A stretch of DNA of 64,000 nucleotides from Planctomycetota bacterium (lineage in GTDB: Bacteria; Planctomycetota; SZUA-567; H5-PLA8), in contig DASPJR010000088.1 of NCBI GenBank assembly GCA_035628505.1, positions 30,765 to 94,764 of the forward strand, written 5' to 3'. This document shows positions 19,413 to 56,022 of the stretch, one piece after another; position 1 is the first letter of the stretch; the number at the start of each line of letters is the position of its first letter. The notes beneath the pieces were generated by a model. That model saw nothing but the letters and a program-made list of their open reading frames with translations, was not told where the DNA came from and did not search any database. The translations under genes were made by a program, and so were the position numbers.

Positions 19413-22400
19413 TCAGGGAACTGGAATCTCATTGAGTGTGTACGCCGCATGCGGGTTAACAAGGGCGTCGCCGGTAGCGGACTTTACCCCCGCTGCGCCG
19501 ATCATGTAGACTCGATCCCTGATCAGCGCGCCTGTCCGGATCTCGACCGAGCGCCCGTCAGCGGCCACGGCGATCTTTTCAATGCTTAAAGGCATTCGAT
19601 CCAGTTCCGGCGATCCATACGAGCCCGTGTACTCATAGCGGTAGTGTTCGATCGCGTAAGACTCGGGCAGGCCTGCCAGCTTCGCGTCGACGGCTTGTGT
19701 GAAATTCAAGCGGAAGCCCTGGGGCCTTACGTTGATGGAATGAATTTCGAACGGAGTCTGTCCCGTGAAATCGATTCGGAACAAAGCGCCTCGATCCGGC
19801 TGTGCCATCCAGCCGGGTTCGGTGATGCTTCCAACGAAGAGCCGCCCACGTGGATCGAATGCCAGTGTCAGCGGCCCAAGCAGCCCCTTGCCCCAGAACG
19901 GAAAACAGGCACCCTGGTACTCGCCATTCACTTTTTCCAGACTCGCGCGAATGATGGCGCCGCCATACATCAACTCCGCCAGGAAGAATTGGCCCTTGAA
20001 GGGACCGAACTTTTCCCCAGAGTTATAGGTCACACCGTTAATCGAACGCCCCCACGCATACGGCACCCACAGCGCGGTTTTCCCTGGGGGTTTTGTCGCG
20101 TGCTCCTTCTGATCAGGGTTGGGAAAACCGTAGTACCGTCCCTTCACCACATGGCAGAGCTTGTTTGTGGCAACCCATTCGCCCTGGTTGTCTGTGTAGA
20201 AGATTTCGGAGTCCGGTCCGTTGCACCAGCCCAGTGGATTGCGGAATCCAAAGGCGATTTCTTCGGGCTTCTCGCCTGGAATCAGGCGAATTGCCGAGCC
20301 TGATCCGGGAAGCTTGCGATTGGCATACGGCGCAAAACTGATCACCAGGGCACCCGTCTTGTCACGCACAAGGCCATAGCCGTAGTCGTATGTTTCAGCA
20401 ATGCCGTGCGGAAGCGCAAACACACGTTCAAAATTTGTTGCCCTGCCGCCTGTCTCCGTAATGCGTGTCACATTTCGCCGATGAAGTACGTACAATCCGT
20501 CTTTCTCCGCCAGCATCGCATAGACTTCCTGAAACAGCCCGCCCGCGTAGTTTTCGAATTGCGCGCCCTTCCCGTCATCGGCTTGGTCCCGAAGCACGAA
20601 AAGCTCACCGTTCTTCATTGAAGCGACGAAGACACGACCGTCGATGGGGTGAACCGCCACCGCGCCCGGCATCAGCAGATCTTCGCCGGTAACAGTTTTC
20701 GGCCGCGGATAGACAATCGCACGGTATCCGGGGCGTTCGAGCGAGCCGCCAATCGGTCCGGGATCCGGCAGTTGCGGGTAGTTCGTGGGCGGTGGCGACG
20801 CCACGTTTTTCAAGTCGTGCGTTACGCTCTTCACCGGCAAGCCTGACCATTGAATTTCATGCGTCAGTTTGCGAGCCGTGACTCGGAACGTTTCGCTTCC
20901 CTCGATTGATTTCTCTGCATACCGCGCGAGCAGCTTAATGCGCGCGCCATCTGCCAATCGTTCGTACCCAAGCAGTTCGACTGCTTGCGGCGGAGATGTC
21001 AGAGCGTCGATTGCAGACGAGGCTGTGAACTCTGTAAGCGCTACGCCTGCCAACGAGAAAGTGCGTGTGCGCCCACGCACGTTTCTTAAAATCTGCGCAC
21101 CCGAGTACGCTCCGCGTAACTTCAGTGCTCCAATATCGTAAACCAGCAGGTCGTGCGAACCGTACGCCACGCAAATGCTTTCAACGTTCGCTTTGTCCGG
21201 CAAGCGTATGGGAATCTGCGCAACCAGCGGAGGCGCGCCGGCAGGCGGAATGTCAACAGGCACCGCGGGAAGCGGCTTGGGGCTCGGCGCCTCCTTTCCG
21301 AGAGAAAGATAAGCCCAGATCGCTTCCTTCTGCCGAGCCACGTCGCCATCCAGAACAGATTTGATCGTCGCGGGCTGGCCATGCGTAAAGATCTGCGGCA
21401 TGACTGTTCCGGGAACAATGCGTGCAGGCTCGTCCATCCAGCGATCGAACCAATCGCGCCGAATGCGCTGCGTTGTGGTTGTAAGGTCCGGGCCCACCGC
21501 GCCTGGATCGCCTTCGTTCAGCTGCGCGCCATTCCACGTGTGGCAGGAAACACAGGAGTAGCCTTCAAATCCGACCAGCGAGGCGCCCGGTCCGGTCAAC
21601 GTGGGATCAGTTTCCTTCTTAGCCGCCGACGGCGGGCTTACCACGTCACCATCCATCTCAGCAAGCGCCTGAATAATGCTTTCGACATGCGCGCCATAGT
21701 GGGGCATGACGAAGGAGTAACTTTTGTAGCGCACACCGCTCACGCCCTGACGCAAGGCGCTGGAGAGATACTCACGCGTGTACTTCGCCAGCGCGTTGTT
21801 CAACCGCGGCGTTCGCAGGAAGGGAACGGTCTGCAGGAACGCCCCACCCACGGATGCGCTGGCTTCTTCCAGCGGAGGCGGACGATCGTCCACACTGTGG
21901 CAGCGAAAACATCCCAGGCGGCCGATTAACAGCCTGCGATCTTCCACAGGCGATGCATGGCGCTCGCGCGTTGAAACAGATGTGTACGCCACGAGAGCTT
22001 TGCGCGTGGACTCATCCAATTTGAAGCGGACGCTTCCGCTGTCGGAAAGACACCCCGCAACTTTCTCCGGAGTAAGCGGAATCATCTGTTTTTCTGCTTG
22101 AGGCAGCCCCGCGTGACACGCAGCACAACCTTTCGTGCGCAGGAGTGAAATTGCCGCGCCGCTCTTGTCGGGCGCTCCGAGCCTCTTGACCGCCGCGTCC
22201 AGTTCGGCGTCGCTCACAGGAGCTTCCCGTGTGGCAGGCGCGGCCTGTTGCTTGCACCATAGCAACAGATACGCGGCCAGATCACGAGCGGCCTCTGCGG
22301 ACAGCGCGAATTGCGGATGCCTTCCATCCGGGTAGCGGACAATGGGATTCTTCAGGAATTCAGCCAGTTGCGCCGCCGGAAGGCGGTCGGCCAGGCCGTC

Positions 22401-23342
22401 GAAGGATATTCGGTCTACAACCTTCTGCTCCTCTCGCCTGGTCTCAAGATCGTAGTGGCAGGCCACGCATCCGATACTCAGATAAAGCTTTCTGCCGCGC
22501 CGGTGATCGCCTGCCGGGGTCACTGCTGCTTTCGCGCTATTTTCCGTCAGAAGAAAATCGGCAATCAACCGCCGTTCAATGGCGCCATCGCGATCAGGCT
22601 TGAACAAGCTCGGCATTCTTGCTGCAGGGTGCGCCTCTGCTGGATTATTTAAAAACGAAACGAGCCATTCGCGCGAAACACGCGCACCCAGGCCGCTCAG
22701 CGACGGACCGGGTGGCGCATCCTGTAGTGCAGGGAATGCGCCGGCGTGGCACTGTGCGCAGCCGAGTCGGCTCGCCGCGTTGCGCCCTTCCATCGCCAAG
22801 CTATCCAGCCGGACAGTTTCCGGAATTTCCTGCGGCACATGCTTGAACACCCACGCAGGAATTGGTTCGCGCGAAAAGGTTGCGCCCTGCCACCAGAGTT
22901 GCAGACGAGCCGGCACGTTCGCAAGCGAGCGGTAATCGATGCTGATCCGGTAGCGGCCGGCGCGGCGCACAAGAGACTGCTCCGAGCGGACCTGGGCTGA
23001 TTCGCTTTCACCGCGGCCTTTGAGAACCTCATCGCCGTCGATTTTGACGGTCAATTCGCCGCCGACGAAGGCATCAAATAAAAAAGGGGCATCCCCGCGA
23101 AGGACTATCACTCCTTCAAAGGACGCGCTGAATACGCCGGAAGGCAAGCGCGGGTGCGGGCTGGAGTTTCCAAACGAGAACGCCGGCTTCGGCTCGATCC
23201 GCGATACAGTGGCTCCCTCCGGAGATCGATATGTTGCGACGAGCCCAGGCGAAAGTGACTTCGGATTGATCGGCGCAGCATCGCCTGCGTTTGCAGCAGC
23301 AGTTGCAAGCATCGCCAGAATGAGTGTGCAGGTGAGACGCAT
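19413..23342 (-). CDS. Multi-heme c-type cytochrome / PVC-type dehydrogenase (1309 aa, five CxxCH motifs plus a beta-propeller)
   Basis: Signal peptide. CxxCH motifs GCAQCHAG, GCVACHYD, GCAACHAG, GCFRCHSV, CVSCHTW. C-terminal region resembles a sorbosone/glucose-dehydrogenase-like propeller. Confidence 0.7.
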   Translation of the reverse strand: MRLTCTLILAMLATAAANAGDAAPINPKSLSPGLVATYRSPEGATVSRIEPKPAFSFGNSSPHPRLPSGVFSASFEGVIVLRGDAPFLFDAFVGGELTVKIDGDEVLKGRGESESAQVRSEQSLVRRAGRYRISIDYRSLANVPARLQLWWQGATFSREPIPAWVFKHVPQEIPETVRLDSLAMEGRNAASRLGCAQCHAGAFPALQDAPPGPSLSGLGARVSREWLVSFLNNPAEAHPAARMPSLFKPDRDGAIERRLIADFLLTENSAKAAVTPAGDHRRGRKLYLSIGCVACHYDLETRREEQKVVDRISFDGLADRLPAAQLAEFLKNPIVRYPDGRHPQFALSAEAARDLAAYLLLWCKQQAAPATREAPVSDAELDAAVKRLGAPDKSGAAISLLRTKGCAACHAGLPQAEKQMIPLTPEKVAGCLSDSGSVRFKLDESTRKALVAYTSVSTRERHASPVEDRRLLIGRLGCFRCHSVDDRPPPLEEASASVGGAFLQTVPFLRTPRLNNALAKYTREYLSSALRQGVSGVRYKSYSFVMPHYGAHVESIIQALAEMDGDVVSPPSAAKKETDPTLTGPGASLVGFEGYSCVSCHTWNGAQLNEGDPGAVGPDLTTTTQRIRRDWFDRWMDEPARIVPGTVMPQIFTHGQPATIKSVLDGDVARQKEAIWAYLSLGKEAPSPKPLPAVPVDIPPAGAPPLVAQIPIRLPDKANVESICVAYGSHDLLVYDIGALKLRGAYSGAQILRNVRGRTRTFSLAGVALTEFTASSAIDALTSPPQAVELLGYERLADGARIKLLARYAEKSIEGSETFRVTARKLTHEIQWSGLPVKSVTHDLKNVASPPPTNYPQLPDPGPIGGSLERPGYRAIVYPRPKTVTGEDLLMPGAVAVHPIDGRVFVASMKNGELFVLRDQADDGKGAQFENYAGGLFQEVYAMLAEKDGLYVLHRRNVTRITETGGRATNFERVFALPHGIAETYDYGYGLVRDKTGALVISFAPYANRKLPGSGSAIRLIPGEKPEEIAFGFRNPLGWCNGPDSEIFYTDNQGEWVATNKLCHVVKGRYYGFPNPDQKEHATKPPGKTALWVPYAWGRSINGVTYNSGEKFGPFKGQFFLAELMYGGAIIRASLEKVNGEYQGACFPFWGKGLLGPLTLAFDPRGRLFVGSITEPGWMAQPDRGALFRIDFTGQTPFEIHSINVRPQGFRLNFTQAVDAKLAGLPESYAIEHYRYEYTGSYGSPELDRMPLSIEKIAVAADGRSVEIRTGALIRDRVYMIGAAGVKSATGDALVNPHAAYTLNEIPVP

Positions 23343-23512: not shown

Positions 23513-24007
23513 TCAGACTGAGATGAGTCTGAGAAGCCAATTAATAACCAGGGCGGCAAGCACCAGCGAGCCCGTGTAGACCTGCAGTCGTCTGGCCCAG
23601 TTCGCCTGCCGCGCGGCAGGGCGACGGTAGAGATAAAAGCGGAAGGGCACCTGTATGACGAAGAAGGCATACAGCAGCAATCCGACGCGGTTGCTTGAAA
23701 ATGAGTGCTCCAGCCGCCCATGCGTTAAGTGCACAAAAGCACGGGTCATCCCGCAGCCCGGGCATTCCGCGCCACACATTTTGCTGATGCACATCGGCGG
23801 CAGTTTATATCTGCCCAGAGATATTTCTTCAGAGTCCGCTTTGCCATTGAGCAGGAATGGCAGCGAGATCATGGCCAGGCTGATCAGAAAATACGTCAGG
23901 TGCGTGGCGCTATCCTGCGGCAAAGCTCTCTCGGGCGAGAAAGCTGCGCGCATCGACGCCGCCAGTCTCGAGATAACAGATGGTCTGCCGAGAGGTATCT
24001 GGTCCAT
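23513..24007 (-). CDS. DUF2752-family small membrane protein, last gene of the ubiquitin-like operon
   Basis: Signature CPGCGMTRAF followed by hydrophobic helices. The ORF-track start (24016) overlaps the E2 stop by 4 nt. An ATG lies 9 nt inside, at 24007. Confidence 0.55.
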   Translation of the reverse strand: MDQIPLGRPSVISRLAASMRAAFSPERALPQDSATHLTYFLISLAMISLPFLLNGKADSEEISLGRYKLPPMCISKMCGAECPGCGMTRAFVHLTHGRLEHSFSSNRVGLLLYAFFVIQVPFRFYLYRRPAARQANWARRLQVYTGSLVLAALVINWLLRLISV

Positions 24008-24012
24008 GCGAC

Positions 24013-24915
24013 TCACGAATTGACCATCACTGCGGGCGCGCAGCGTGTACAGAACATCTGCGAACCTGCGCCGGATTTCACTTTTTGAATGTGCTCAAGG
24101 CATGTGGATTTGCCGCACGCCTGGCACTCCACGATGCAGTCCATGCAGCGGCTGTGTTCGCAGATACTGCAGCGGGCCTGGTGGCGCATGCAGGTTGTCT
24201 GCTGACAGGAGGCGCACTTCATGGCGCATTTCTGACACGTGACTGCCTTGCAGCTCGCGCAGGTCAGCAGCGCGCATTTCAGACAGACGACGGCATCGCA
24301 GAGCTGGCAATGCAGCTTGCAGTTCTCGCAGCAGACGTGGCTGTTCAGACAGACACTCATGCTTTCAGTCGAGCCATTCTTGCCGCAATTGGCGCATGTG
24401 TCGCCAGCGAGCATCTTCCCATCGCTCGACCGGCCGACGGCCTCACCGACGGCAAGCATTGAACCGAAGTCGAACGTGTCCAGGGGCAGCGAGGCACTGT
24501 TCTCTTCGACCCACTTCGCCGCCTCGCCGTTCAATGGGCTCTTCACGTTGTAGGACTGATACGAGAGCATCTCGGCGATGCGTACGATCAGATTTGCCAG
24601 CGATTCGCCGGCCGCCCAGTGATCGCCGATGCAGATCGCATGCGGCGCAATGTTGGGATGAAACACCGGGGTCAGCATCCGGCACTGCGGCGCCAGGCGC
24701 GGGTACGCGGCAGTGAGGTTGATCTCCACAAGGAACGTGTTGCGAATATGGATCTGCCCATCCATTGCTTTTTCGAGCCCTTTGACGAGGTACTCGATCT
24801 GGTACTTTTCAGGCGGATCCCCAAGCGATTTCTTGATGTGTATGCGCGACTTCTGCGTAAACAGTGTGCACAGACGGTCGTAATCGGCCTTCAAGCGGCG
24901 CAGCCTGACGCTCAT
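24013..24915 (-). CDS. Ubiquitin-conjugating enzyme E2 (UBC fold) with a cysteine-rich C-terminal tail
   Basis: N-terminal helix RLRRLKADYDRL. Core YPRLAPQCRMLTPVFHPNIAPHAICIGDHW...SPLNGEAAKW aligns to the eukaryotic E2 HPN-x(5-6)-ICL-x2-W...SPLN pattern, with a catalytic Cys. The C-terminal ~115 aa contain ~27 Cys in periodic C-x2-C / C-x4-C spacing. Its start overlaps the upstream protease stop (ATGA). Confidence 0.8.
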   Translation of the reverse strand: MSVRLRRLKADYDRLCTLFTQKSRIHIKKSLGDPPEKYQIEYLVKGLEKAMDGQIHIRNTFLVEINLTAAYPRLAPQCRMLTPVFHPNIAPHAICIGDHWAAGESLANLIVRIAEMLSYQSYNVKSPLNGEAAKWVEENSASLPLDTFDFGSMLAVGEAVGRSSDGKMLAGDTCANCGKNGSTESMSVCLNSHVCCENCKLHCQLCDAVVCLKCALLTCASCKAVTCQKCAMKCASCQQTTCMRHQARCSICEHSRCMDCIVECQACGKSTCLEHIQKVKSGAGSQMFCTRCAPAVMVNS

Positions 24916-26222
24916 TTTTCGAGCCCCTCGATCGTGTTCGGCATGAAGTACTTTTCCCGCTCAGCGGGGCTGAGCAGCTTTACGAAGCTCGGCGTAGAGA
25001 TGGCGAAGTTGATGCCTTCTGTCGTGGACTTGTCATGTGTCCAGGTGTTTACGCCGACCAGCATTCCGTCGGAAGCGTACAGACCGCCGCCGCTGTTGCC
25101 CTGGTTAATCGGCGTCTGCGTCTGATAAATTTCCATGGACTGATTGCCGAGCTTACTCGTGCGTACGCCGGAGATAATGCCTTCCGTATAGGACCACGAC
25201 AGTGAAACGGGATTGCCTATCGCAAAGACTTTTTCTCCCGGCGACAGCACGCGCGGCGAGATCTGGATGGGCTTGTATTTGTCCAGCGTGAGCGCCTGGC
25301 AGCCCACGATCGCCAGGTCGACTGCCTCATCCCCTGACCATTCAACCACGCCACTGCTTTCCTCGCCGTTATAGAAGACAATGCGAAGATCGCTGTTGTC
25401 CTTCTTGTCTCCGGCTACGTGCTTGTTTGTCAGAATGTAACACTTGCGATCCTGGCTCTTCAATATCACCCCGGATCCGAAACGCATGCCTTCAAGCACG
25501 CCCGCGTTGTTCTTGATAATCACGTTCGCCCGCATGGCATTGGCAGCGGGTGCAGGCATGCTCTGCAATTGCTGCTCTGAAGGCAGGTTTTCATTCAGCC
25601 GCATATCGGCAGTCTGCTGGCTGGCCGTGTGTTTATGGGCGTAGGCAAGGTAAGCGAAATAGAAAATGAGCAGCAGTCCCGGCGCGCCGATGGATGAAAT
25701 TGCCAGCGGCATTCCACTGCGTCTGTTTTCTGGCGTCGTGATAATAACGAGTGCGATCACGCCCAGCACGGTGGCCGCCAGGCACAGCATGATTCCAAGA
25801 ATCACCAGCTTCTGGTGCCCTGCTACTGCTCCCAGCAACCCAATGGCGCTGAGGCCCGCAACAATCGCTCCGGCGACAGCCAACCGGCTCGTGCTGACAG
25901 GGCCCTTGGGCATGAATGAGGCCGCCACATCCTGCGGCGCCTGCCGGGCCGGGCGCACGGGCACTGTAATATTCGCCAGTTCGTCTTCACGAATGACGAT
26001 GTCCGGCTGGGCGTTGCCGGCGGTCGTGCGCACGGCCGTGTCACAGTGATACGACGCGCAGCCCTGCTTGCGGGCCCAGCAGGTGTCGTGATGAATCGCC
26101 CCGCAGTCGTTGCAGAAGCAGACCATCTGGCCAACGTCCACGGGGGCCTGGCAATACGGGCACGTGTTGCCGGAGTGAAACGTATTGGCGACAATCGGCC
26201 GTGATGGTGCGGAGGTCTTCAT
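24912..26222 (-). CDS. C4HC3 zinc finger + transmembrane segment + trypsin-like (S1, HtrA-like) serine protease fusion
   Basis: N-terminal CPYCQAPVDVGQMVCFCNDCGAIHHDTCWARKQGCASYHC. Two hydrophobic helices. A catalytic-domain-like region follows: ILTNKHVAG...DLAIV...GNSGGGLY (Ser nucleophile context GNSGG). Probable start at the internal ATG 26222. The ORF track extends to a GTG at 26297 that overlaps the upstream gene. Confidence 0.65.
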   Translation of the reverse strand: MKTSAPSRPIVANTFHSGNTCPYCQAPVDVGQMVCFCNDCGAIHHDTCWARKQGCASYHCDTAVRTTAGNAQPDIVIREDELANITVPVRPARQAPQDVAASFMPKGPVSTSRLAVAGAIVAGLSAIGLLGAVAGHQKLVILGIMLCLAATVLGVIALVIITTPENRRSGMPLAISSIGAPGLLLIFYFAYLAYAHKHTASQQTADMRLNENLPSEQQLQSMPAPAANAMRANVIIKNNAGVLEGMRFGSGVILKSQDRKCYILTNKHVAGDKKDNSDLRIVFYNGEESSGVVEWSGDEAVDLAIVGCQALTLDKYKPIQISPRVLSPGEKVFAIGNPVSLSWSYTEGIISGVRTSKLGNQSMEIYQTQTPINQGNSGGGLYASDGMLVGVNTWTHDKSTTEGINFAISTPSFVKLLSPAEREKYFMPNTIEGLEK

Positions 26223-26230
26223 CGAGGCTC

Positions 26231-26842
26231 TCAATCGAAGAGAATCATCAAACCCATCAGGAGCAGCAGAAAACCGCTGATCCCGACAGAACACCACACC
26301 AGAGCTTTGAGTGTGGACGGCAGGCGGCGATAGTCAATACCCATGAATTCCTTCTGGTAGATAAGGACTCCGTTGAGTACCAGTGCCAGAGGTGACAGAC
26401 ACGCAGCTGCCGACAGAAGGAACAGGCCGACAACTTTGTTTCGCGCCGCGTTGTACTCTTTGCCCTCATATTCCCGCGTGAGGTACTCTTCTTTGCTCAC
26501 CACATCGCGTGTTTCAAATGACGCGCCGCAGAAGCGGCACTTGAGCGCCTGCCCCTTGATTGTTTTGCCGCATGCCGGGCAGGGCTTCTCGCCAGCCCAT
26601 GCATTGGTGACGGGCAAGCCCTCTGCATGTTTTGTTGTTTTAGGCGTGCATTCACAGCCATAGGCCGAGCAGCCGCCGTTTTCTTTCCAGCACTCCGTAT
26701 GAAATGGAAGGTTGCACGCCGGGCAGTAAACAATGCGTTCGCCGGCAATCACGCCGGTCTGGCAGATCGAACACAGCTTTCCTGCCGTGCTCGTGCCGGC
26801 CTCAAACTCCTTGGGCAAAGCAGCGGGTTCGGGAGCAGACAT
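26231..26842 (-). CDS. Membrane-anchored C4HC3 (RING/PHD-like) zinc-finger protein with an extra C-terminal zinc ribbon
   Basis: CSICQTGVIAGERIVYCPACNLPFHTECWKENGGCSAYGC, then CPACGKTIKGQALKCRFCG, then two C-terminal TM helices. ATG at 26842 (GGGGAGA upstream) lies 7 nt after the upstream gene's stop. Confidence 0.6.
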   Translation of the reverse strand: MSAPEPAALPKEFEAGTSTAGKLCSICQTGVIAGERIVYCPACNLPFHTECWKENGGCSAYGCECTPKTTKHAEGLPVTNAWAGEKPCPACGKTIKGQALKCRFCGASFETRDVVSKEEYLTREYEGKEYNAARNKVVGLFLLSAAACLSPLALVLNGVLIYQKEFMGIDYRRLPSTLKALVWCSVGISGFLLLLMGLMILFD

Positions 26843-26849
26843 GGCTGTT

Positions 26850-27578
26850 CTATCTCCCCTCGGCCGCAAGACGGATCAATGTAAAGACTGCCTGTGAAAC
26901 CAGGGAGATCAGCAGCAGCTTGCCGCCCTTCTTCTTTCCCTGCACCATCCAAACAATCGCCATGATGCAAGCAATGCCGCCGCACAGAATGCCGAAGGCG
27001 ATTTCCGCACCGGTGAGATTCTCATCATCATCAGCCCCCGCCTGGAGCTTTTTCTGCCTTTCGCGATCCACCGGATCCTGGTACTCGCCGCAAAAGCGGC
27101 ACACGCGCGCTTTTTTCTGAATCTGCTCGCCGCACGAGACACATTCTTTTGTGTCTCCAGCAGGAGCCGAAACGACCGTTCCAATGGCTGCGGCGGACGC
27201 CAACTTTGGCTGCGACGGGCAAGCTGGATGCCCGCAGGCACCTGCTTTCTCACGGCAGGCCTGATGCATGGTGCTGCCGCAGCTCTGACAGTTGCAGACG
27301 TCATCGCCCAGTTCGATTGCAACCGAACAGGACGGACAGGTGCGGCCAAGCAGAGCCTTGTTCGCCTTCATGCGTTCAGGGAAAAAGGGCGGGCCGGGCG
27401 GCGGAGGCAGAGACGGCGCGCCATGAGACGGCGTCAGCGCAAGCGGGTCGGCCGTCAACGGCGGTGCGGCTGCAGCAACGGGCTTGGGAAGTTCCGCTCC
27501 ACAGTACATGCAGGAATTGCTTGTGTTGACTGCAACATTCCTGTCGCAGCTCGTGCACCGGACCGTTTCCCTGTTCAT
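26850..27578 (-). CDS. Membrane-anchored C4HC3 (RING/PHD-like) zinc-finger protein with flanking zinc ribbons
   Basis: CTSCDRNVAVNTSNSCMYCG (ribbon), then CPSCSVAIELGDDVCNCQSCGSTMHQACREKAGACGHPAC (C4HC3), then CVSCGEQIQKKARVCRFCG (ribbon), then a C-terminal TM segment. ATG at 27578. Confidence 0.6.
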   Translation of the reverse strand: MNRETVRCTSCDRNVAVNTSNSCMYCGAELPKPVAAAAPPLTADPLALTPSHGAPSLPPPPGPPFFPERMKANKALLGRTCPSCSVAIELGDDVCNCQSCGSTMHQACREKAGACGHPACPSQPKLASAAAIGTVVSAPAGDTKECVSCGEQIQKKARVCRFCGEYQDPVDRERQKKLQAGADDDENLTGAEIAFGILCGGIACIMAIVWMVQGKKKGGKLLLISLVSQAVFTLIRLAAEGR

Positions 27579-27610
27579 TTCCCCTCTCCCCTGCCCCGCA
27601 TTCAAACGTC

Positions 27611-28690
27611 TCAGGCGCCCTTTGTCTTTTCCGAATATTTCAACACGGCTTCGCCGAGTGAAATGACATCGTTGGATTGAAGCACGTACTTGTCGATGGC
27701 CTTGCCGTTCACGAAAGTTCCCTTGCCGCTGCCTTCATCGGTCAGGATGTATTTGCTGCCGGATTTCATGACGGTGGCGTGCAGCGGCGCAATGTCCGGG
27801 TCCTTGAAAAGGTAAATGTCGGACTTGGGAGACGAACCGATCAGCATCGGATTTTTGAAGACAATGAATTGTTTTCCCGTCAGCGGGCCTTTCAGCATGA
27901 GAAACCAGGCTTCCTTGGACAGGTTTTCGAAGAGCCCGATGAAGATGCCAACGAAGAGTGACACCGCAAAGATGCCCACGAATCTGCTCACGGAACCATC
28001 CGAGGCCTGTCCGAGCACAAAGCGGCTGATGGGATCAAAAAACAAACCGCCGATCAGTCCGCCAATCATTCCCCCGACAAAACCATTCAGCACAAGCTTT
28101 TTGGATTTCAGCGCAATCCCCAGCCCCATCCCCGCGCCCATGCTGACGACCGACCACGCGATAGCCCGCCCGCTCATGAAGATGACGAACGACATGCCTT
28201 TTAACGGAAACTCGCCCGGCGCAGGCGGCGCCTGATTGCGCATGAAAGCCACCGCAATCATGGACGTGATTCCGAAGAGAATATCCGCCACGATGGTGGT
28301 CAGCAGGGTGACGACCAGTCCGACGCCCATTCCCACCGCGCCGCAATAGAGCACCTGTTTCCAGTTGCGATTCATCAATCCGTAAACGGTGCCAATAGAA
28401 AGGCCGAGCGCAGCAGCAACCGGCCCGAAGAGGAGATAATCGGAGACGAAGGGAATCCCGCGCGAATGGCCGTGGTCGCCTTCCCTGTTATACGGTTCAG
28501 TGATTGCCCATACCGTCACGCCGCCGATGACCGAAGCCACTGAGTAATAGAAGATCGGGTTGTAGTAAAACGGCGTCTTAACGTCGGCAGTCTGCTGAGC
28601 GGCCTGGGGCTGCACGGAGCGATGCAGCGCCAGCACATCGTCGATGGCCGGGTCGCGCAGATCGTCTTCCGAAATCATGATGTCGGGCAT
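27611..28690 (-). CDS. Polytopic membrane protein with a C-terminal FHA domain
   Basis: At least six hydrophobic helices, followed by GKQFIVFKNPMLIGSSPKSDIYLFKDPDIAPLHATVMKSGSKYILTDEGSGKGTFVNGKAI...LQSNDVISLG. This is the classic FHA pattern (GR/SxxD..L.D..VS..HA.I...Y.L.D.GS.NGTFVNG). ATG with a GGAGAGGAGA RBS. Confidence 0.7.
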   Translation of the reverse strand: MPDIMISEDDLRDPAIDDVLALHRSVQPQAAQQTADVKTPFYYNPIFYYSVASVIGGVTVWAITEPYNREGDHGHSRGIPFVSDYLLFGPVAAALGLSIGTVYGLMNRNWKQVLYCGAVGMGVGLVVTLLTTIVADILFGITSMIAVAFMRNQAPPAPGEFPLKGMSFVIFMSGRAIAWSVVSMGAGMGLGIALKSKKLVLNGFVGGMIGGLIGGLFFDPISRFVLGQASDGSVSRFVGIFAVSLFVGIFIGLFENLSKEAWFLMLKGPLTGKQFIVFKNPMLIGSSPKSDIYLFKDPDIAPLHATVMKSGSKYILTDEGSGKGTFVNGKAIDKYVLQSNDVISLGEAVLKYSEKTKGA

Positions 28691-28716: not shown

Positions 28717-30021
28717 TTATTTCTTGCTGGGAATCGCGCTGCCGCTTGCGGCGGGCGCGGCCTTTTGTTCCTTGCCATACAGAATTTCCAGCGCCCGCGG
28801 CATCTCCTGTTCGAGGATGGGCTTTATGCCAGGGGAAATACGGAGTGCATTTTCAAGAATCCGGCGTGCTGTTTCCTTTTCCAAGTCGCCAAATTTGGAC
28901 GGATCGGCTTCGTACGGCTTGATGATTTCGCTGGCGCGCTGAACGTACAACATCGCCACAGCCGCGCTCAGTTCATCCTGGTGACGTGACGTAGCAGCGA
29001 CGCGCTGGCTGAGGTTCTGCCGCGAATTCATCATCTGCTCGATGTCGTCGCGGAACTTCGTTCGAGATTTGTTGTAGTGCTGCTCCAGCTTCGCCAACTG
29101 ATCCGTAAGTGCTTTAAGCTCGGTTTGTGCGGCGGCGTCACCAGCCTTGACCTTCTCTCCGATGGTCTGCATTTTTTCACGAATTTCCGCGAAGTCGCGC
29201 GAAGCAAGCGCATTAAGCGCGCTGAATTCGACAATGGAATAGATCTCGCTTTCGAGACTGGCCGTCACTTCTTTCCGGATATCCTGCACCGCCTGGTAAC
29301 GGCCCAGCATCAGCCCGCAACCGAGCGCCACCAGCATGAAAATAAGGGTGGTCAGAAAGCCGGGACCGCTTTCGCCGGAGGAATACTGCACGGGGGTGTC
29401 GTAAGTCGCCGCAGGCTGAGCCGAGCGCCCAGCGGAATTCATCGGCTTGGGACCGTCAACTTCAACAGGCTCGGCAATGCCTGTCGCAAGCTTGATCTGC
29501 CGGCTGCCAACCCAGTAGCGGGACAGGGGCACGCTCTTGCCTTCAATCCAGGCAAAGCAGCCTTCCTCATGCTTTTTCGTTTCAATGACGATTGCGACCT
29601 GGTACGGGAGATTGAAGAAGTTCTCCTGGATGAACATGTCCATTCCGGAAAGGAACACGCCGAACCCCGGATGCGTGTGGTACCAGCCGACGATGCGCTG
29701 TTTGGGATATTCCTTGTCTTTGATGCTGTTGATGTGGTCCCACGTCTGGTGCGTGAAGGTCACCTGCGCGCCGTAATTGTTCGAATGAAGCCCTTCGATG
29801 ACCGCGGTGATGCACAGAAAATAACCTTGCGAATCGCGGCACACGTCTCCGATCAGTACGCCGCACAGCTCGACTTCATTGGTCGTGTTCGCGTGGCTTT
29901 TCATCCGCTCATAGGCACGCTCGTCGATGTGCACGCGGTATTCCGAGGCAATCTGTGTCGGAAAGACCGCCTCTCGCGCATCCTTTTTTTCGATATTTGA
30001 ATAGTCCAGAGTCGCGGCCAT
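28717..30021 (-). CDS. JAB/MPN (JAMM) metalloprotease with a TM helix and a coiled-coil C-terminal extension
   Basis: Perfect JAMM motif: upstream Glu (NEVELCGVLIGD) and HTHPGFGVFLSGMD (H-x-H-x7-S-x2-D). TM helix GFLTTLIFMLVALGCGLMLG. C-terminal ~200 aa are helical and charged. Confidence 0.8.
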   Translation of the reverse strand: MAATLDYSNIEKKDAREAVFPTQIASEYRVHIDERAYERMKSHANTTNEVELCGVLIGDVCRDSQGYFLCITAVIEGLHSNNYGAQVTFTHQTWDHINSIKDKEYPKQRIVGWYHTHPGFGVFLSGMDMFIQENFFNLPYQVAIVIETKKHEEGCFAWIEGKSVPLSRYWVGSRQIKLATGIAEPVEVDGPKPMNSAGRSAQPAATYDTPVQYSSGESGPGFLTTLIFMLVALGCGLMLGRYQAVQDIRKEVTASLESEIYSIVEFSALNALASRDFAEIREKMQTIGEKVKAGDAAAQTELKALTDQLAKLEQHYNKSRTKFRDDIEQMMNSRQNLSQRVAATSRHQDELSAAVAMLYVQRASEIIKPYEADPSKFGDLEKETARRILENALRISPGIKPILEQEMPRALEILYGKEQKAAPAASGSAIPSKK

Positions 30022-30052: not shown

Positions 30053-31264
30053 TCACACGCGAATTTCTTTTCCTACATCACTCTCACGCCACGCTTCACC
30101 CAGCACCGCTTGCGCATCGCCGGAAAACAGATACGAAATGGAACGTTCTCCCTTGCGCGCGGTCACCACGTCAAAGCGCGGCGTTCCGATTTGCTCAAAA
30201 GTCATGTTGTCGATCGGAGCCGGCTCAAGTCCGAGCGTGTGTGTCAGTTCCGGAGCACGCATCTGCCCGCACTGCGGACATTTTCCTTCCGCTTCGGTCG
30301 TCTTCCCCAGTGAACGGAAAACGGGTTCGCTGGTCCCGCAGGCGGGGCAGTTGAGCGCCGTGAGAATATCCCGGCCGAGCTGCAGAACGGTGCCTTCGCC
30401 GAGCTCCGCGCGTGCGATCTTCAGAAGATCGGAGACTCTCATGTCGGCCACGCCAGCCTTCAGCCGCCGGAGATCCTGGTGCGGCTCATGGGCTGCACAA
30501 TCCGGCTTTCGCGTGTAAGCGACGGTGTACGATTCGGCGCTCAGGCCGTGATAAACGAACCCCTTGCCGCTGAGCGTCTCCATTCCATGCAGCAGCTTGA
30601 TAGCTTCCTGCATCTGCACCGCGGAGATAATGCTCGCGGTTGTCGGTGTCGTCGGGACTTTGCCTTCGTTCAGCTGGGTGCGTGTGAGCAGCGCGCAGGA
30701 GCGGCGGTTCTCAAGCATCTTCCAGTCTGTTGCGTTCATCGTACATTCGTAACAGGGGCCCGGCCCCGGCGCGAAAACGCGCGCCACGCCATCAAGCACC
30801 TCAATCGCGCCATCGATCCAGGGTTTTCCCGCAAACAGAGCAGCGCTGTTGATCGCCACGCGAGCCTCCCGATTGTCGAGGCCGCCGAGAATTACATCGG
30901 CCCAGAAATACACTCCGAGCCCAAGGTCATGAACAACGTTGCCGATGAATGGTTGCGCCCTGATCTGCGGATAAAGCTCCCGCGCCGAGCGGCAGGCGAT
31001 CTCGGCTTTGTATTTTCCATTGTCCGATTCACGGAAGAGCGGCGAGCGCGTGAGGTTTGAGTTTTCGATGCGGTCCATATCCGCGACCACGAGGTTGCCA
31101 ATACCGAGCAGCGCGCAATTCTTGACAATCTCATTGCCCAGCGCGCCGGCGCCGATAACAAGCACCCGCGCGTTCCGCAGACGGTTCTGGTCCCACCAGG
31201 AGATGAGCTCAAAGCGGCTGAAGCGGTGCTCTGGAACGGCCTCGCGAATGTTCAGGACGCTCAT
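30053..31264 (-). CDS. E1-like ubiquitin-activating enzyme (ThiF/MoeB/HesA family) with a C-terminal Cys4 extension
   Basis: Rossmann nucleotide-binding motif RVLVIGAGALGNEIVKNCALLGIGNLVVADMDRIENSNLTR. MoeB-like PGPGPCYECT motif. C-terminal CPACG...CPQCG zinc-binding pair plus an extra ~100-aa domain. Its ATG overlaps the Ubl stop (ATGA). Confidence 0.85.
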   Translation of the reverse strand: MSVLNIREAVPEHRFSRFELISWWDQNRLRNARVLVIGAGALGNEIVKNCALLGIGNLVVADMDRIENSNLTRSPLFRESDNGKYKAEIACRSARELYPQIRAQPFIGNVVHDLGLGVYFWADVILGGLDNREARVAINSAALFAGKPWIDGAIEVLDGVARVFAPGPGPCYECTMNATDWKMLENRRSCALLTRTQLNEGKVPTTPTTASIISAVQMQEAIKLLHGMETLSGKGFVYHGLSAESYTVAYTRKPDCAAHEPHQDLRRLKAGVADMRVSDLLKIARAELGEGTVLQLGRDILTALNCPACGTSEPVFRSLGKTTEAEGKCPQCGQMRAPELTHTLGLEPAPIDNMTFEQIGTPRFDVVTARKGERSISYLFSGDAQAVLGEAWRESDVGKEIRV

Positions 31265-31575
31265 GCGCAGCCTCGGCCGGCTTCGTGGACAGCGCGTCCG
31301 CCAGCCGTGATCTCCGGCTGAAGTCGAAGCACATCGCCATCTTTTACGCTGGCGCTCTGCAGCGTTTCTTCATCGAGCAGCTGGCGGCCGCTGGCCTTGT
31401 GGTGGAATTTGTAGCTCATGAGCTGCCCATCGGGACTGTGCCGCGGCAGGTTCATGCGTTCGACAAGCAGCACAATGATGCGGTTCACCGGCGCCGCGCG
31501 CGGCAGATTGACTGTCACCTTCTTGTTGCCGGTGGCATCCCAGACTTCAACATTCATGCCAGCTTCATCTGCCAT
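31261..31575 (-). CDS. Ubiquitin-like beta-grasp protein with a Gly-Gly followed by an 11-residue C-terminal tail (pro-Ubl)
   Basis: Start ATG 31575 with AAGGAG 10 nt upstream. Sequence MADEAGMNVEVWDATGNKKVTVNLPRAAPVNRIIVLLVERMNLP...GQLMSYKFHHKASGRQLLDEETLQSASVKDGDVLRLQPEITAGG|RAVHEAGRGCA parallels the secondary-structure order of ubiquitin. Its C-terminal half mirrors [29 protein letters not shown]. Its stop overlaps the E1 start. Confidence 0.75.
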   Translation of the reverse strand: MADEAGMNVEVWDATGNKKVTVNLPRAAPVNRIIVLLVERMNLPRHSPDGQLMSYKFHHKASGRQLLDEETLQSASVKDGDVLRLQPEITAGGRAVHEAGRGCA

Positions 31576-31613
31576 CTCTGGTGCACTCCTTCTGGTAAGC
31601 GTGTTCAAGGACG

Positions 31614-32684
31614 TTAAAGAGTCTTTATTGCATCAATGGGCCCGGCGAGTTCGCTTTCGGCGACGTACCAGCGGCCTTCTCCCCGAATCAATATTTTTCG
31701 AAATGCGCGCTTTTCGGTCCTGCGAATGACAAGGTAGACAATGGCGAAAATCAACGGGCTGATCACAAAAACAACGATCCAGGAAGGATAGCTCGTAAAG
31801 GTGATGTTTGCCTCGACCATGGCGACGCCACCGTGTTCGCTGATTGACTTCACTGAAGTGAGCTCGGCACTGCGGGCATGGCTGCTCGGACCCGTGAACA
31901 CCGATTTCCAGTACGCCTTGAAAGATTCGACATCCTTTATGTGAAACTGTCCGGCTTGAGATGGGATTTTCGGGTCGTTGAAAGTAAGGCTCGGCACCGG
32001 ACCAATGTTCCGTGCCGACGGAGCCAGACACGCGAACGCGCGCTCCGCGCGGTTGGTCGCAACGGCCGTATAGAAGCCCTTGAAGGCATGATGCGCTGTT
32101 AATGCGCCCGCAATCTTGTGCGTGATACTGTCGTTGTACCAGGACACACACACCGGAATCACAAAGATCAGGGTGCCGAGGATTCCGAATACGCCGAACG
32201 GAGCGCCATTGTCGCCTTTCAGCACGATGCCCGATACGATCGACATCAATGACAGTCCGAGCAGGCCCATGAGGACCTTGGTCTTTGTGGAAAGCAACGC
32301 ACCGGTCAACTCTGCATCGGCTGCCACTGCTTCCGGATTTGCGCTGTATTTTTGAACCTCAGCAACGCGCGCCTCAAGCAGCTGCCGCTGCTGCTCGGCG
32401 TTCAATTCACCTGCGATGGATTGCCGGCAAAGCGGACAGATCGCCGAACCGGCAGGGATCTGTTCGGCACACGCAGGACACTCGGTCATCTGTTGAGCGG
32501 TGACAGGCGGCGAAGAAATCGCGGGCGAATCTCGCAAGACAGCAGGTCCAGGCGAACCTTTGTCATCAGTGGTGCTCGGTGCCGTTAACTCTGCCCCGCA
32601 GACGGCACAGAGAACCAGACCACCGGCATTGAGATCATGTACGCGAAACGTTTTTCCACACTGGCATGAGACAGTAATTGGCAT
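31614..32684 (-). CDS. Zinc-ribbon membrane protein (first gene of the operon)
   Basis: N-terminal CQCGKTFRV...CAVCG and CPACAEQIPAGSAICPLCRQ ribbons, then four or five TM helices, then a C-terminal ~130-aa domain of unknown function. It lies 38 nt upstream of the Ubl gene on the same strand. Confidence 0.5.
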   Translation of the reverse strand: MPITVSCQCGKTFRVHDLNAGGLVLCAVCGAELTAPSTTDDKGSPGPAVLRDSPAISSPPVTAQQMTECPACAEQIPAGSAICPLCRQSIAGELNAEQQRQLLEARVAEVQKYSANPEAVAADAELTGALLSTKTKVLMGLLGLSLMSIVSGIVLKGDNGAPFGVFGILGTLIFVIPVCVSWYNDSITHKIAGALTAHHAFKGFYTAVATNRAERAFACLAPSARNIGPVPSLTFNDPKIPSQAGQFHIKDVESFKAYWKSVFTGPSSHARSAELTSVKSISEHGGVAMVEANITFTSYPSWIVVFVISPLIFAIVYLVIRRTEKRAFRKILIRGEGRWYVAESELAGPIDAIKTL

Positions 32685-34131: not shown

Positions 34132-37100
34132 TTACCGCTTGCCGTCTTTCGCCTGGCCGGCATTCGGCGTTGCATCGTACGATTCGGTCTGGATGGTCTG
34201 GTAAATCGCGTTGTTGAAGTAGATGCGTACTGGAAGCATCAGCGTCTTGTCTTTCACCGGCGTGTTGGTCAGTCCGTACGGCTGCAGTGTTGAGACCAGG
34301 TCTGCCTTCTTCAGTGAGATGCGGAACTTAATCGAGCGTGCCTTCTCGCCGCGCGTACGCATCGACAGATAGTCTGTGCTTGTCAGAACGCGGCCCTTCG
34401 GATTCAACGTAAAGCTTCTCGTGACGCCTGCCACATCCATGATGCAGGTCTGCGTTCCCAACGTGAAGCCATCGGGCACGCCGAAAGTTCCGCTAAGTGT
34501 CAGCTTGTCATTGCTCGTGCGCACAAAATTAAGCTTGATGAGCAGCTTCGCATCGAGGAGCAGTTGCGGCGGCGGAGCCGTGGTGCCGAATGGCGTTTCC
34601 GAAGCATTCGTGGACGACGATCCCGCGACCACTTCGACCGAGTCCGGGAAGCCATCGTTGTCGCTGTCCACCTGGACAGGGAACGGCAGCGCACCGCCTC
34701 CGCCGCTGGCCACCACCAGCATCGTCAGCGTCGCGCTCGTTGAGAGTTTCGCGCCGTTAGTGATGACCACGGTCACCTTGTACGTACCGAGCGATGTGTA
34801 GGTGTGCGTCGGGCCCGGCAGCGTGCTCGTCGAGCCGTCACCAAAATCCCACGCGTAGGTCAAACTCGAGGGCACCTGGTCGGTTGCGCCCAGCGCGAAC
34901 GATACTGGCGCGCCAGGAGTGGCCGGATTGGGTGTCGCCGCAGGCTGGGAAACAACGACCGGCGCGACGGCTGTCACGTTCAGTGCGACAACACTGCTAA
35001 CTGTCTTGAAGTTCACGGTATCGTTCGGCGTGAACGTTGCTGTCAGCGGCTGGCCGTTACCGGTTCCAAGAATGGTGCCGCTGGCGGGCGAGTACTCGAA
35101 CGTTCCCGGCACATCCGCGGTCGCATTTAGTTGCAGACCGCTTAAAGCCGTGCCCGTCTGTATATCCGCCGGAGTAGCCCACGTGATGACTGGCGCTGCT
35201 TTCTGCACGTTAATCAGCACCGTTGCAGTGATTGTGCTCGGCTGAATCGTGGAATCGGCTGCAGTGAACGATACAAGCAGCGTCTGATTGGCGCCGGCAT
35301 TCAGCACCGTTCCGATGGCAGGCGTGTAGGTGAATGTGCCAGGCGTGTTGGCGCTCGCGTTCAATTCAGCGGCACTTAGCGCAGTGCGGTACAGGATATC
35401 AGCCGGATTGTTCCACGTAATCACCGGCGTGGCGTGCACCGTCAGTGTAAAGAGCTGCATGTCATCGACCGGCACACCATTGCTCGCCGTAAAGATAAGC
35501 GTATACGTCCCGGACGTTCCCGACGCGGGCGTTCCGGAGAGTTCGCCTGTGAGAGCGTTGAACGTCATGCCTGCCGGAAGGGCGCCGCTCAGGCTTAGTG
35601 CCGGCTGCGGAGAACCCGTTCGGACAACCGTGAAGTTGCCGGCACTTCCGATCGTGAAGGCCACATTGTTGCCGCTGGTAATCGCCGGCGCCTGGTTCAC
35701 GGTCAACGTGAACGCCTGGGTGGCGACAACTCCTACTCCGTTGCTGGCGCTGAAGGTCAAATTGTAAACCGCCGCCGTCCCGGCTGCGGGCGTGCCGCTG
35801 AGAACGCCGGTCGCGCTGTTGAACGACAGCCCGGACGGAAGCGTGCCGGAGAGGCTTAACACCGGAGCCGGCGAACCATCCGCTGTGACGCTGAAGCTTC
35901 CGGCAGCGCCGACCGTAAACGCTGCGTTGTCGACACTCGTAATTCCAGCCGGCCGGTAAACCGACAGCATAAAATTCTGAATCGAGTCCGGTCCGATTCC
36001 GTTACTGGACGTGAACACGATCGGGTAATCCCCGCCGGTGCCCGCCGCGGGAGTTCCCGACAGCAGTCCCGTCGCCGGATTGAACGTAACGCCTGTGGGC
36101 AGCGCGCCGCTCTGTGAGAGCGTCGGTGCTGGTTCGCCGAGCGAAGTGACACCGAAGCTGCCGGCGGCACCTTCGGTGAAGATCGTGCTGGCCGCGCTGG
36201 TGATCGAGGCCGGTTGATTGACGATCAGGCTGAAGTTCTGAATTGCTGCCGATCCCACTCCGTTGTCAGCGTTGAGCGTGAGATTGTACGTGCCTCCCGT
36301 TCCTGTCGCTGGATTGCCGCTCAGCACGCCGGTGGCCGCATTGAAGCTTACGCCCGTCGGCAGCGTGCCGGTCAGTGTGAGTGCTGGAGCCGGCGATCCG
36401 CTGGCAGTCATCGTGAAGCTGTTTGAACTGCCTACCGTGAAAGTCGTGGTGTTGGCGCTGGTGATCGCGGGGACCTGGTTGACCGTTAACGTAAAGTTCT
36501 GAACATGCGGCGTGGCAACGCCGTTCTGCGCCGTGAACGTCAGCGGATACGTTCCAGCCGTGCCCGCCGCAGGCGTTCCGCTCAGCACGCCTGTAGATGC
36601 ATCGAAGGATACGCCATTGGGCAACGTGCCGGAGAGGCTCAGAAGAGCGGCGGGGTAACCGCTGCGCGTCACGCTGAAGCTGCCGGCCGATCCGACCGTG
36701 AATGTCGTATTGTCGGCGCTGGTCACCGCCGGCGCCTGTTCGACCGTCAGCACGAAATTCACCACAGAATCCGAACCGACGCCGTTCGCTGCCGTGATCG
36801 TGAAGTTGTACACGCCGCCTGTTCCGGCTGCCGGCGTGCCGCTCAGGGTGCTGCCAACAAAGGTGACGCCTGTGGGCAGCGGACCTGTCAGTGTGAACGT
36901 CGGCGCCGGCACGCCAGTCGCGGTGACCACGAAATTGCCCGCAGTCCCCACCCGGAAGGTTGTCGCCGTACCGCTCGTGATATTCGGAGCCTTGTTGATA
37001 ACCAGGGTGAAATTCTGCACGGCATTGACGCCGACGCCGTTGGCTGCAGTGAACGCGATATCGTAGCTGCCGGAGGTTCCCGCCGCTGGAACGCCGCTGA

Positions 37101-55748: not shown

Positions 55749-56022
55749 GCCCATCGCCCCCTGCTGCACCGCCTGCACGGTTGAGCCTCTCATTATATAG
55801 GTGAACCGTTTTGGGCGAAAGGGTGAAGAAAAGTTCTCTTTGTGCGTACCTCCATTTGCCAGGTGGCCGTACAGGTCCCCCACCCCCCGGAGAATTGGCA
55901 ATTCTCGTTACGTCAAAAGGGCCGTTGCGCATCGGGTGAAGGTCTCCTATAAACCCTTTAGCAGCCAGATCGATGCGCCCATCTCCTTTCTGGCCGCGTC
56001 GCCTCGCGAAAGGCACCTCGGA

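Follow-up and report, generated by a model that had tools for sequence, protein, structure and literature searches.

The protein encoded at positions 27611 to 28690 of the window, by which we mean the whole stretch of 64,000 nucleotides of Planctomycetota DNA that was analysed, is a six-TM protein with a C-terminal FHA fold (TM-FHA), and it belongs as an obligate subunit to the core of a ubiquitin-like system; this invariant core is made up of a YukD-type Ubl, an E1, a JAB peptidase and TM-FHA itself. The FHA domain of this protein is without the canonical phosphothreonine (pThr) triad family-wide. Because the pThr contact residues are lost and the apical loops are invariant, the FHA domain most likely docks partners and does not read kinase signals, and from our analysis we lean towards the view that the FHA fold of TM-FHA serves as a phosphorylation-independent membrane scaffold or adaptor.

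The operon is on the minus strand and its genes, in the order of transcription, are as follows.

31614 to 32684, minus strand: Zn-ribbon membrane protein with 3 TM, 5 nt upstream of the Ubl gene
31261 to 31608, minus strand: YukD-family Ubl, soluble, with a probable ATG start at 31575
30053 to 31264, minus strand: E1-like adenylating enzyme of the ThiF family, soluble, with a 4-nt overlap with the Ubl gene
28717 to 30021, minus strand: JAB/JAMM metallopeptidase with the intact motif HTHPGFGVFLSGMD
27611 to 28690, minus strand: TM-FHA, 359 aa, with an N-terminal motif (cytoplasmic), six TM helices and a C-terminal FHA fold (cytoplasmic)
26850 to 27605, minus strand: Prok-RING_1 zinc-finger protein with two C-terminal TM helices
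26231 to 26869, minus strand: second Prok-RING_1 protein with two C-terminal TM helices
24912 to 26297, minus strand: Prok-RING and about 3 TM followed by a serine protease domain (HtrA/Trypsin_2-like) with a predicted periplasmic location
24013 to 24915, minus strand: E2 (UQ_con), soluble, with the motif FHPNIAPHAIC and a Cys-rich C-terminal extension
23513 to 24016, minus strand: DUF2752 membrane protein, which closes the operon and is followed by a 170-nt gap

The genes are closely packed with intergenic gaps of -67 to +31 nt. When the operon was scanned for promoters and terminators, 0 promoter-like sites turned up and the count of terminator-like sites was not above that of shuffled sequences. 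The upstream Zn-ribbon gene is conserved in the closest relatives only and is thus a possible accessory first gene. Gene annotation bears out the preliminary description in that TM-FHA lies between the JAB and the zinc-finger genes inside a ubiquitin-like operon. The Prok-RING_1 family of Pfam reportedly has its source in the work of Burroughs, Iyer and Aravind (Mol Biosyst 2011). The catalytic motifs are intact in the E2 (HPN...Cys, as FHPNIAPHAIC), in the JAMM domain (H-x-H-x7-S-xx-D, as HTHPGFGVFLSGMD) and at the C-terminal Gly of the Ubl (...EITAG plus tail), and covalent conjugation of the Ubl is predicted. The Ubl matches Pfam YukD with E=1.9e-10 and has a conserved C-terminus, ...LRLQPEITAG, which is followed by a putatively removable tail of 11-12 residues. 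Throughout its family the C-terminus is an invariant ...LR[LI]QPEITAG with 0 to about 30 variable residues after it, and several homologues end exactly at ...TAG, a pattern that is as expected for a modifier whose Gly would be exposed by a JAB peptidase. The JAB protein has, beyond its JAMM domain, one TM segment (aa 219-241) and then a C-terminal coiled-coil region, and TM segments are also found in all three RING proteins, DUF2752, the upstream Zn-ribbon protein and TM-FHA. Since only the Ubl, the E1 and the E2 are without TM segments, the whole system is membrane-embedded, and the general idea put forward earlier that this system acts at a membrane agrees with the TM segments of most of its subunits. 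Secretion ATPase, WXG100 and T3SS genes were looked for among the operon products and none was present.

TM-FHA is a real gene. Its ORF has an ATG start with a Shine-Dalgarno-like purine-rich run, GGAGAGGAGA, 6 nt upstream, and an identical protein is already on record from a Planctomycetota MAG. At E<=1e-3 there were 243 homologues, nearly all of about 355 aa and aligning end to end; a spurious ORF was ruled out by these hundreds of full-length homologues. The parts of the protein that matter for what follows are listed here.

28637 to 28681, minus strand: conserved N-terminal cytoplasmic motif, aa 4-18 (IMISEDDLRDPAIDD)
27917 to 28558, minus strand: six-helix TM bundle, aa 45-258, with the Gly-zipper GGxxGGxxGGLFFDP
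27632 to 27907, minus strand: FHA-fold domain, aa 262-353, beginning right after TM6
27824 to 27838, minus strand: beta3-beta4 loop GSSPK, aa 285-289, with Ser286 in place of the Arg of the canonical GR
27779 to 27790, minus strand: beta4-beta5 loop APLH, aa 301-304, with Ala301 in place of the Ser of SxxH and the structural His304 retained
27716 to 27730, minus strand: beta6-beta7 loop SGKGT, aa 321-325, with Lys323 in place of the Asn of S-x-N-G-T

The topology of TM-FHA is N-in, six TM, C-in in the inner membrane. Hydropathy, the structure model and the positive-inside rule applied to 190 homologues all agree on this, and their concordance places both the N-terminus and the FHA domain in the cytoplasm; in these 190 homologues loops 2 and 4 carry 2.0 and 2.8 K+R, respectively, with D/E nearly nil, and loops 1, 3, and 5 are acidic or of mixed charge. 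The same three lines together with the profile match confirm that, as had been described from the ORF translation, an FHA domain is carried on a polytopic 6-TM protein. Conserved polar residues, namely E65-P66, R175, W179, D219-P220, and S235-R236, lie at the predicted periplasmic face of the TM bundle, and a comparison of the bundle with solved structures found no structural homologue. The N-terminal motif has the family pattern I-x-I-[T/S/D/N]-x-x-[D/E]-L-x-x-P, in which position 7 is T in 51%, S in 23%, D in 10%, and N in 5% of the homologues, and relative to this position there is D/E at +3 in 183/190 and L at +4 in 174/190. The model confidence of this N-terminal region is low (pLDDT 37-56).

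Domain searches had been proposed as a check on the FHA region, and it passes the curated cut-offs of Pfam: the FHA match is E=1.8e-14 (aa 283-346), above the curated cut-off, and the Yop-YscD_cpl match is E=4.9e-14 with 52.8 bits against a gathering cut-off of 33.2. The NCBIfam matches of this region, which were to the OdhI, FhaB, and TagH FHA domains, were all sub-threshold. Searching the PDB by sequence returned GarA, DgcB, and OdhI, and the structures found nearest to the domain by structure search were those of pThr readers, with DgcB FHA-tail complexes among the matches. Thus, its membership of the FHA fold (Pfam PF00498, SMAD/FHA clan) is recognised both by profile and by structure as a beta-sandwich. 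In canonical FHA domains the Ser of SxxH contacts the phosphate and the Asn of NG contacts the peptide backbone. Three motifs make up the canonical pThr pocket (PMC3162421): GR follows strand 3, SxxH precedes strand 5, and NG precedes strand 7. We placed these motifs in TM-FHA by pairwise alignments to GarA and DgcB, which were gapless through the motifs, the only break being one inserted residue in the F295/K296 region of the beta4-beta5 loop. Where GarA has GR, SRRH, and S-L-N-G-T, TM-FHA has G285-S286, A301-P-L-H304, and S321-G-K323-G-T, respectively.

This replacement extends over the family. Among 190 non-identical homologues the position of the GR Arg (286) was Ser in all 190, and the position of the SxxH Ser (301) was Glu in 133, Ala in 37, Asp in 15, and Ser in 2, so that 185/190 have E, A, or D there; the position of the NG Asn (323) was Asp in 70, Ser in 32, Lys in 26, Asn in 5, and other residues in the remainder. 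The structural residues G285, H304, and N328 are conserved in at least 95% of the same homologues, and Pro288 and Lys289 are nearly invariant across the family. When 40 far more distant relatives, found with the TM domain alone as the query, were examined, the pThr residues were lost likewise, with GS in 35/40 and GR in 1/40. The apical loops hold near-invariant residues that are specific to the family, G-S-[SA]-P-K, F295-K296-D297, and P302-x-H304, and because these loops are not decaying their surface appears to be selected for a different but conserved ligand. The preliminary description had proposed phosphorylation-dependent recruitment of the conjugation machinery and had itself tied this proposal to the Arg, Ser, and Asn contact residues; as these are absent family-wide (Arg 0/190, Asn 5/190) the proposal is not supported. 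Judged from its sequence, with all three contact residues replaced, TM-FHA is very unlikely to be a canonical phospho-reader.

In a survey that took one genome per species, relatives of TM-FHA were present in 275 species-representative genomes, mostly of Planctomycetota with some of Victivallales, Brocadiia, Verrucomicrobia, Sumerlaeota, Riflebacteria, and Aminicenantes. Neighbours were counted at 80 retrieved loci and only those with adequate flanks were scored (n=61 upstream and n=56 downstream). The JAB gene was immediately upstream of TM-FHA and on the same strand at 61/61 loci, and colinear upstream genes for the E1 and the YukD-Ubl were found at 60/61 and 59/61, respectively. Downstream, Prok-RING was found at 55/56 loci, the RING-protease at 51/56, the E2 at 48/56, and DUF2752 at 43/56. 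The co-occurrence of FHA-TM proteins with E1/E2 operons, for which an analysis had been suggested, is therefore upheld by the E1 count upstream and the E2 count downstream. The reciprocal test gave the same picture, as E1, JAB, and TM-FHA followed in order at 21/21 Ubl-anchored metagenome loci with enough downstream sequence, and the FHA domain was present in 40/40 sampled diverse relatives of the TM bundle. At the L163 locus, a vWA-containing variant, the genes for Ubl, E1, JAB, and FHA are kept with neither RING nor E2 nearby, and at a Riflebacteria locus they are kept with one Prok-RING and no E2. Membrane-anchored Prok-RING E3s, the RING-HtrA protease, the E2, and DUF2752 are the usual additions to the core. 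Natural fusions of JAB with TM-FHA (P0153), of Prok-RING with TM-FHA (P0189), and of TM-FHA with trypsin (P0254) were all inside the same operon type, and insertions into periplasmic loops of relatives were seen as about 100 aa in loop 1 and as a vWA domain in loop 3. The idea that in the JAB-fused relative the TM helix of JAB replaces TM1 was rejected because in P0153 a soluble JAB domain is joined to an entire TM-FHA protein, with TM1 and the N-terminal motif still in place.

As a scaffold, TM-FHA would sit in the inner membrane with its FHA fold directly on the cytoplasmic face, and the FHA domain would dock a cytoplasmic component onto the membrane complex. The leading candidates for the docked partner would be the JAB domain and the YukD-like Ubl, the latter in its precursor, free, or conjugated form. 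Through its TM bundle the protein may also interact with a partner in the periplasm or the membrane, for which the conserved polar cluster and the insertions in loops 1 and 3 of relatives would be the pointers. Phosphorylation-independent binding is our inference, as are the partner's identity and a possible role in sensing. The Ubl and JAB are the best candidates because the FHA gene tracks Ubl, E1, and JAB more faithfully than it tracks the E2 and RING, because JAB can be fused to TM-FHA, and because YukD-like proteins together with FHA-bearing ATPases recur across T7SS subtypes (PMC11217815); the Ubl is a candidate also because YukD is gripped by the FHA domains of YukB in T7SSb (PMC12637312). 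A specific contact between the FHA domain and the Ubl, within the scaffold reading, is put forward tentatively as a possibility that this analysis raises. A bolder proposal, which we hold to be doubtful, is that T7SS and this conjugation system have in common an ancient pairing between a YukD-type Ubl and an FHA fold carried by a polytopic membrane protein. If it is true, the 6TM-FHA protein would bind the Ubl, or clients tagged with it, at the membrane and would couple what happens on the periplasmic side (the polar cluster, the vWA or other loop insertions, and the HtrA-like domain) to cytoplasmic Ubl processing and conjugation, and the whole would be a bacterial ERAD-like or trans-envelope signalling machine of the ubiquitin type.

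Three observations on the FHA domain and its surroundings go against the scaffold reading, namely that the invariant Ser and Lys of its loops (S286, S287, K289, and K296) could form a non-canonical phosphate site, that the conserved N-terminal [T/S]-x-x-[D/E]-L resembles the FHA ligand consensus, and that the structures nearest to the domain are true pThr readers. A different explanation is that the FHA domain is a non-canonical reader of phosphorylated or acidic peptide and that what it reads, either in cis or in trans, is the I-x-I-[T/S]-x-x-[D/E]-L motif at the protein's own N-terminus, the loops with the four residues just named binding the motif and thereby giving regulated oligomerisation or auto-inhibition as in the case of the DgcB FHA-tail. 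The conservation of the motif with T in 51% and S in 23% at position 7, its retention in the JAB-fused and the vWA-containing variants, and the DgcB FHA-tail complexes among the structural matches are consistent with such a reader. However, FHA pockets are pThr-specific but the putative site also accepts Ser, Asp, and Asn, position 7 showed no covariation beyond lineage with the FHA loop positions 301, 303, and 323, and the N-terminus is modelled at a pLDDT of 37-56, and on balance we consider this explanation unlikely.

It is about equally improbable that TM-FHA is mainly a substrate receptor, a conduit, or the main substrate of an ERAD-like process in which the membrane RING E3s tag clients and the FHA domain only tethers the bundle to the ligases. 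That the TM bundle recognises membrane or periplasmic clients or passes them is likewise an outside possibility. What points this way is that there are Gly-zippers as well as conserved charged or polar residues within the bilayer or close to it, that relatives have periplasmic-loop insertions (about 100 aa in loop 1 and vWA in loop 3), that the RINGs are membrane-anchored and one RING protein carries a periplasmic HtrA-like domain, and that the FHA lysines K273, K289, and K296 are invariant.

The preliminary description was right that the window holds two Hanks kinases, and their coordinates are as follows.

52779 to 55901, minus strand: Hanks kinase
55801 to 58170, plus strand: Hanks kinase with an FGE-sulfatase domain

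Their suggested link to the system did not hold, as a kinase is near only 4/80 homologous loci; this count is of kinase domains within +/-10 kb in 1.27 Mb of flanks, and their positions and orientations differ. That the FHA domain is a canonical pThr reader which couples Hanks-kinase signalling, for example from these kinases about 25 kb away, to membrane recruitment of the conjugation machinery is therefore very improbable. In its favour, the domain does have the FHA fold, with pThr readers as the nearest structures, two Hanks kinases are present in the window, and some T7SS subtypes bring together kinases or phosphatases with FHA domains and YukD-like proteins (PMC11217815). Against it, all three phosphate and peptide contact residues are replaced family-wide with Glu at the Ser position in most members, the few kinases near homologous loci have no fixed position, and gene-by-gene inspection of operon variants revealed neither a kinase nor a phosphatase.

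We return to the scaffold reading and to what it means for this system. Complete bacterial cascades of E1, E2, RING-E3, JAB, and Ubl matter for the question of how eukaryotic ubiquitin signalling arose. That TM-FHA is in the invariant core with the Ubl, E1, and JAB even where the E2 and RING are absent redirects the study of such systems, and since its FHA domain does not qualify as a canonical phospho-reader the focus should be on the assembly of the membrane complex and on FHA-Ubl or FHA-JAB contact, and not on kinases. A concrete, testable hypothesis for TM-FHA comes from the 2025 T7SSb structure, in which FHA domains hold YukD, and cultured hosts are available, e.g., Lacipirellula limnantheis and Gimesia alba.

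The operon class has been known since 2011 and the copy in the window belongs to it. Operons with a YukD-like Ubl, E1, E2, JAB, and Prok-RING were described by Burroughs, Iyer and Aravind in 2011, according to the citation in PMC10557695, a 2023 preprint that refers to this class as rare and uncharacterised. The earlier remark that there was no bacterial precedent was thus mistaken, both because of that description (cited in PMC10557695) and because TM-FHA occurs in the 275 species-representative genomes. Like the operons of that class, the one in the window has a YukD-family Ubl, a ThiF E1, a UQ_con E2 with HPN-Cys, a JAMM JAB, and three TM Prok-RING_1 proteins; at the operon level there is no difference, and it is colinear with the loci in the 80 sampled genomes. 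What is added here is the family-wide loss of the pThr triad, the core of Ubl, E1, JAB, and FHA, and the link to the YukD-FHA contact of T7SS. The known anti-phage Ubl systems (Bil, CBASS Cap2/Cap3, and 6A-MBL) were ruled out by the PADLOC models, which gave weak generic matches to the E1 and JAB domains of the operon and none for TM-FHA, the Ubl, the E2, or the RINGs. Among the papers open to our literature search, none combined YukD and FHA with ubiquitin, RING, or JAB.

Among FHA proteins the best sequence and structure matches of TM-FHA are GarA/OdhI, FhaA, EmbR, and DgcB, with which it shares the structural Gly, His, and Asn-Gly, but unlike them it has GS, [E/A/D]PxH, and a variable residue at the NG Asn. 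It also differs from GarA and DgcB in the one-residue insertion in the beta4-beta5 loop that gives the invariant F-K-D, and unlike canonical pThr FHA proteins it has no conserved partner kinase nearby. In eukaryotes RNF8, CHFR, and Dma1 are FHA-RING E3 ligases, and RNF8 and CHFR use the pThr residues. The likeness to these three is that FHA and RING are in one ubiquitin-type pathway, and in the relative P0189 both are on one polypeptide; in the window, unlike in RNF8 and CHFR, FHA and RING are on separate proteins and the FHA domain of TM-FHA is without the pThr residues. The Hrd1/Der1 ERAD complexes are RING ligase complexes of the ER membrane, and what this operon has in common with them is multi-spanning membrane subunits beside membrane RING ligases, whereas the TM bundle showed no detectable homology to either Der1 or Hrd1. 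Closest to the reading that we prefer are the secretion systems. Cryo-EM of the B. subtilis T7SSb core, from 2025, shows the membrane ATPase YukB clasping YukD, without a covalent bond, between its FHA domains and its DUF (PMC12637312), and YukD-like proteins and FHA-bearing ATPases are recurrent across T7SS subtypes (PMC11217815); the likeness of our Ubl and FHA to this YukD:FHA contact is at the family level (Pfam YukD, E=1.9e-10) and not at the level of the interface. It has been shown that MxiG-N has an FHA fold without the motifs and does not bind pThr (PMC3162421), and EssC-N likewise has the fold without the motifs, with no phosphopeptide function assigned to it (PMC4925161). Unlike the operons of T3SS YscD and T7SS EssC, the TM-FHA operon is without secretion genes and for this reason TM-FHA is not their orthologue, but like T3SS YscD/MxiG and T7SSb EssC/YukB it carries a motif-less FHA fold on an inner-membrane subunit of a multi-protein machine.

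Conservation of the YukD-type Ubl is very high: across the homologous loci L003-L082 its cross-phylum identity is at least 64%, and in these loci as well as in the window copy it has the invariant end ...LR[LI]QPEITAG. Behind this end comes a variable tail whose length ranges from 0 to about 30 residues; in the window Ubl the tail is GRAVHEAGRGCA. From the sequence, the mature end of Ubl appears to be a single terminal Gly after Ala and not Gly-Gly. At its C-terminus the E2 is extended by about 130 aa that are dense in CxxC pairs, and these probably form multiple zinc ribbons.

31261-31608, minus strand, YukD-type Ubl
24013-24915, minus strand, E2, with FHPNIAPHAIC

When the operon was examined in other genomes and metagenomes, both reduced and expanded variants were found. 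The reduced locus L163 (JGI Ga0116238_10004843) encodes the YukD-type Ubl, E1, JAB and FHA proteins, including a second FHA protein, together with an RDD membrane protein and, within the fetched flanks, no RING; the Riflebacteria locus (L002/L018) has one Prok-RING on top of this type of gene set. In both of these variants E2 was absent within the fetched flanks. The expanded locus L164 (ENA k141_2275322) has two TM-FHA paralogues, one of them fused to Prok-RING, four more Prok-RING genes, two of which have DUF4190, a trypsin-like protease and E2, and a gene for a NACHT/FGE-sulfatase protein lies upstream on the opposite strand.

In some relatives of the TM-FHA protein the TM bundle has an insertion on its periplasmic side, with about 100 aa added to loop 1 or a vWA domain placed in loop 3; these relatives are about 450 aa (P0116, P0131 and similar) or about 600 aa long (P0193, P0195, P0201, P0233 and P0239). 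The insertions suggest that the periplasmic face of the bundle is a side that binds a ligand or partner. At the N-terminus of the TM-FHA protein there is a conserved motif, I-x-I-[T/S/D/N]-x-x-[D/E]-L-x-x-P (T 51%, S 23%, D 10%, N 5%), that looks like pT-x-x-D, the consensus for ligands of FHA domains, and is kept in the JAB-fused and the vWA-containing relatives. Covariation between this motif and the loops of the FHA domain was looked for and none was found.

28637-28681, minus strand, TM-FHA N-terminal motif, aa 4-18

Outside the operon, the nearby 1309-aa protein has a region resembling glucose/sorbosone dehydrogenase as well as several cytochrome c motifs; its gene lies 170 nt downstream of the operon and is probably a separate transcription unit. 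The 4115-aa protein has 22 He_PIG Ig-like repeats, 12 DUF5650 repeats and one PKD domain. The two Hanks-type kinases are divergent, the starts of the listed ORFs overlapping by about 100 nt, and the second has an FGE-sulfatase (formylglycine-generating-enzyme-like) domain at its C-terminus.

19413-23342, minus strand, cytochrome c/dehydrogenase-like protein
34132-46479, minus strand, repeat protein
46743-48482, FecR-like protein, upstream of the repeat protein gene
48452-48982, ECF sigma factor, upstream of the repeat protein gene
52779-55901, minus strand, first Hanks-type kinase
55801-58170, plus strand, second Hanks-type kinase

Two other operon proteins also have parts that are predicted to be periplasmic.

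24912-26297, minus strand, RING-protease polypeptide
28717-30021, minus strand, JAB peptidase

The former is a single polypeptide that joins a cytoplasmic Prok-RING, through about three TM helices, to a serine protease domain of the HtrA/DegS-like type whose predicted location is the periplasm. The polypeptide had no PDZ match; it would tie a ligase module to proteolysis in the periplasm. The JAB peptidase has a TM helix (aa 219-241) and, C-terminal to it, about 190 aa of coiled-coil region which, by predicted topology, would be periplasmic, and this is unusual among deubiquitinase-like enzymes.
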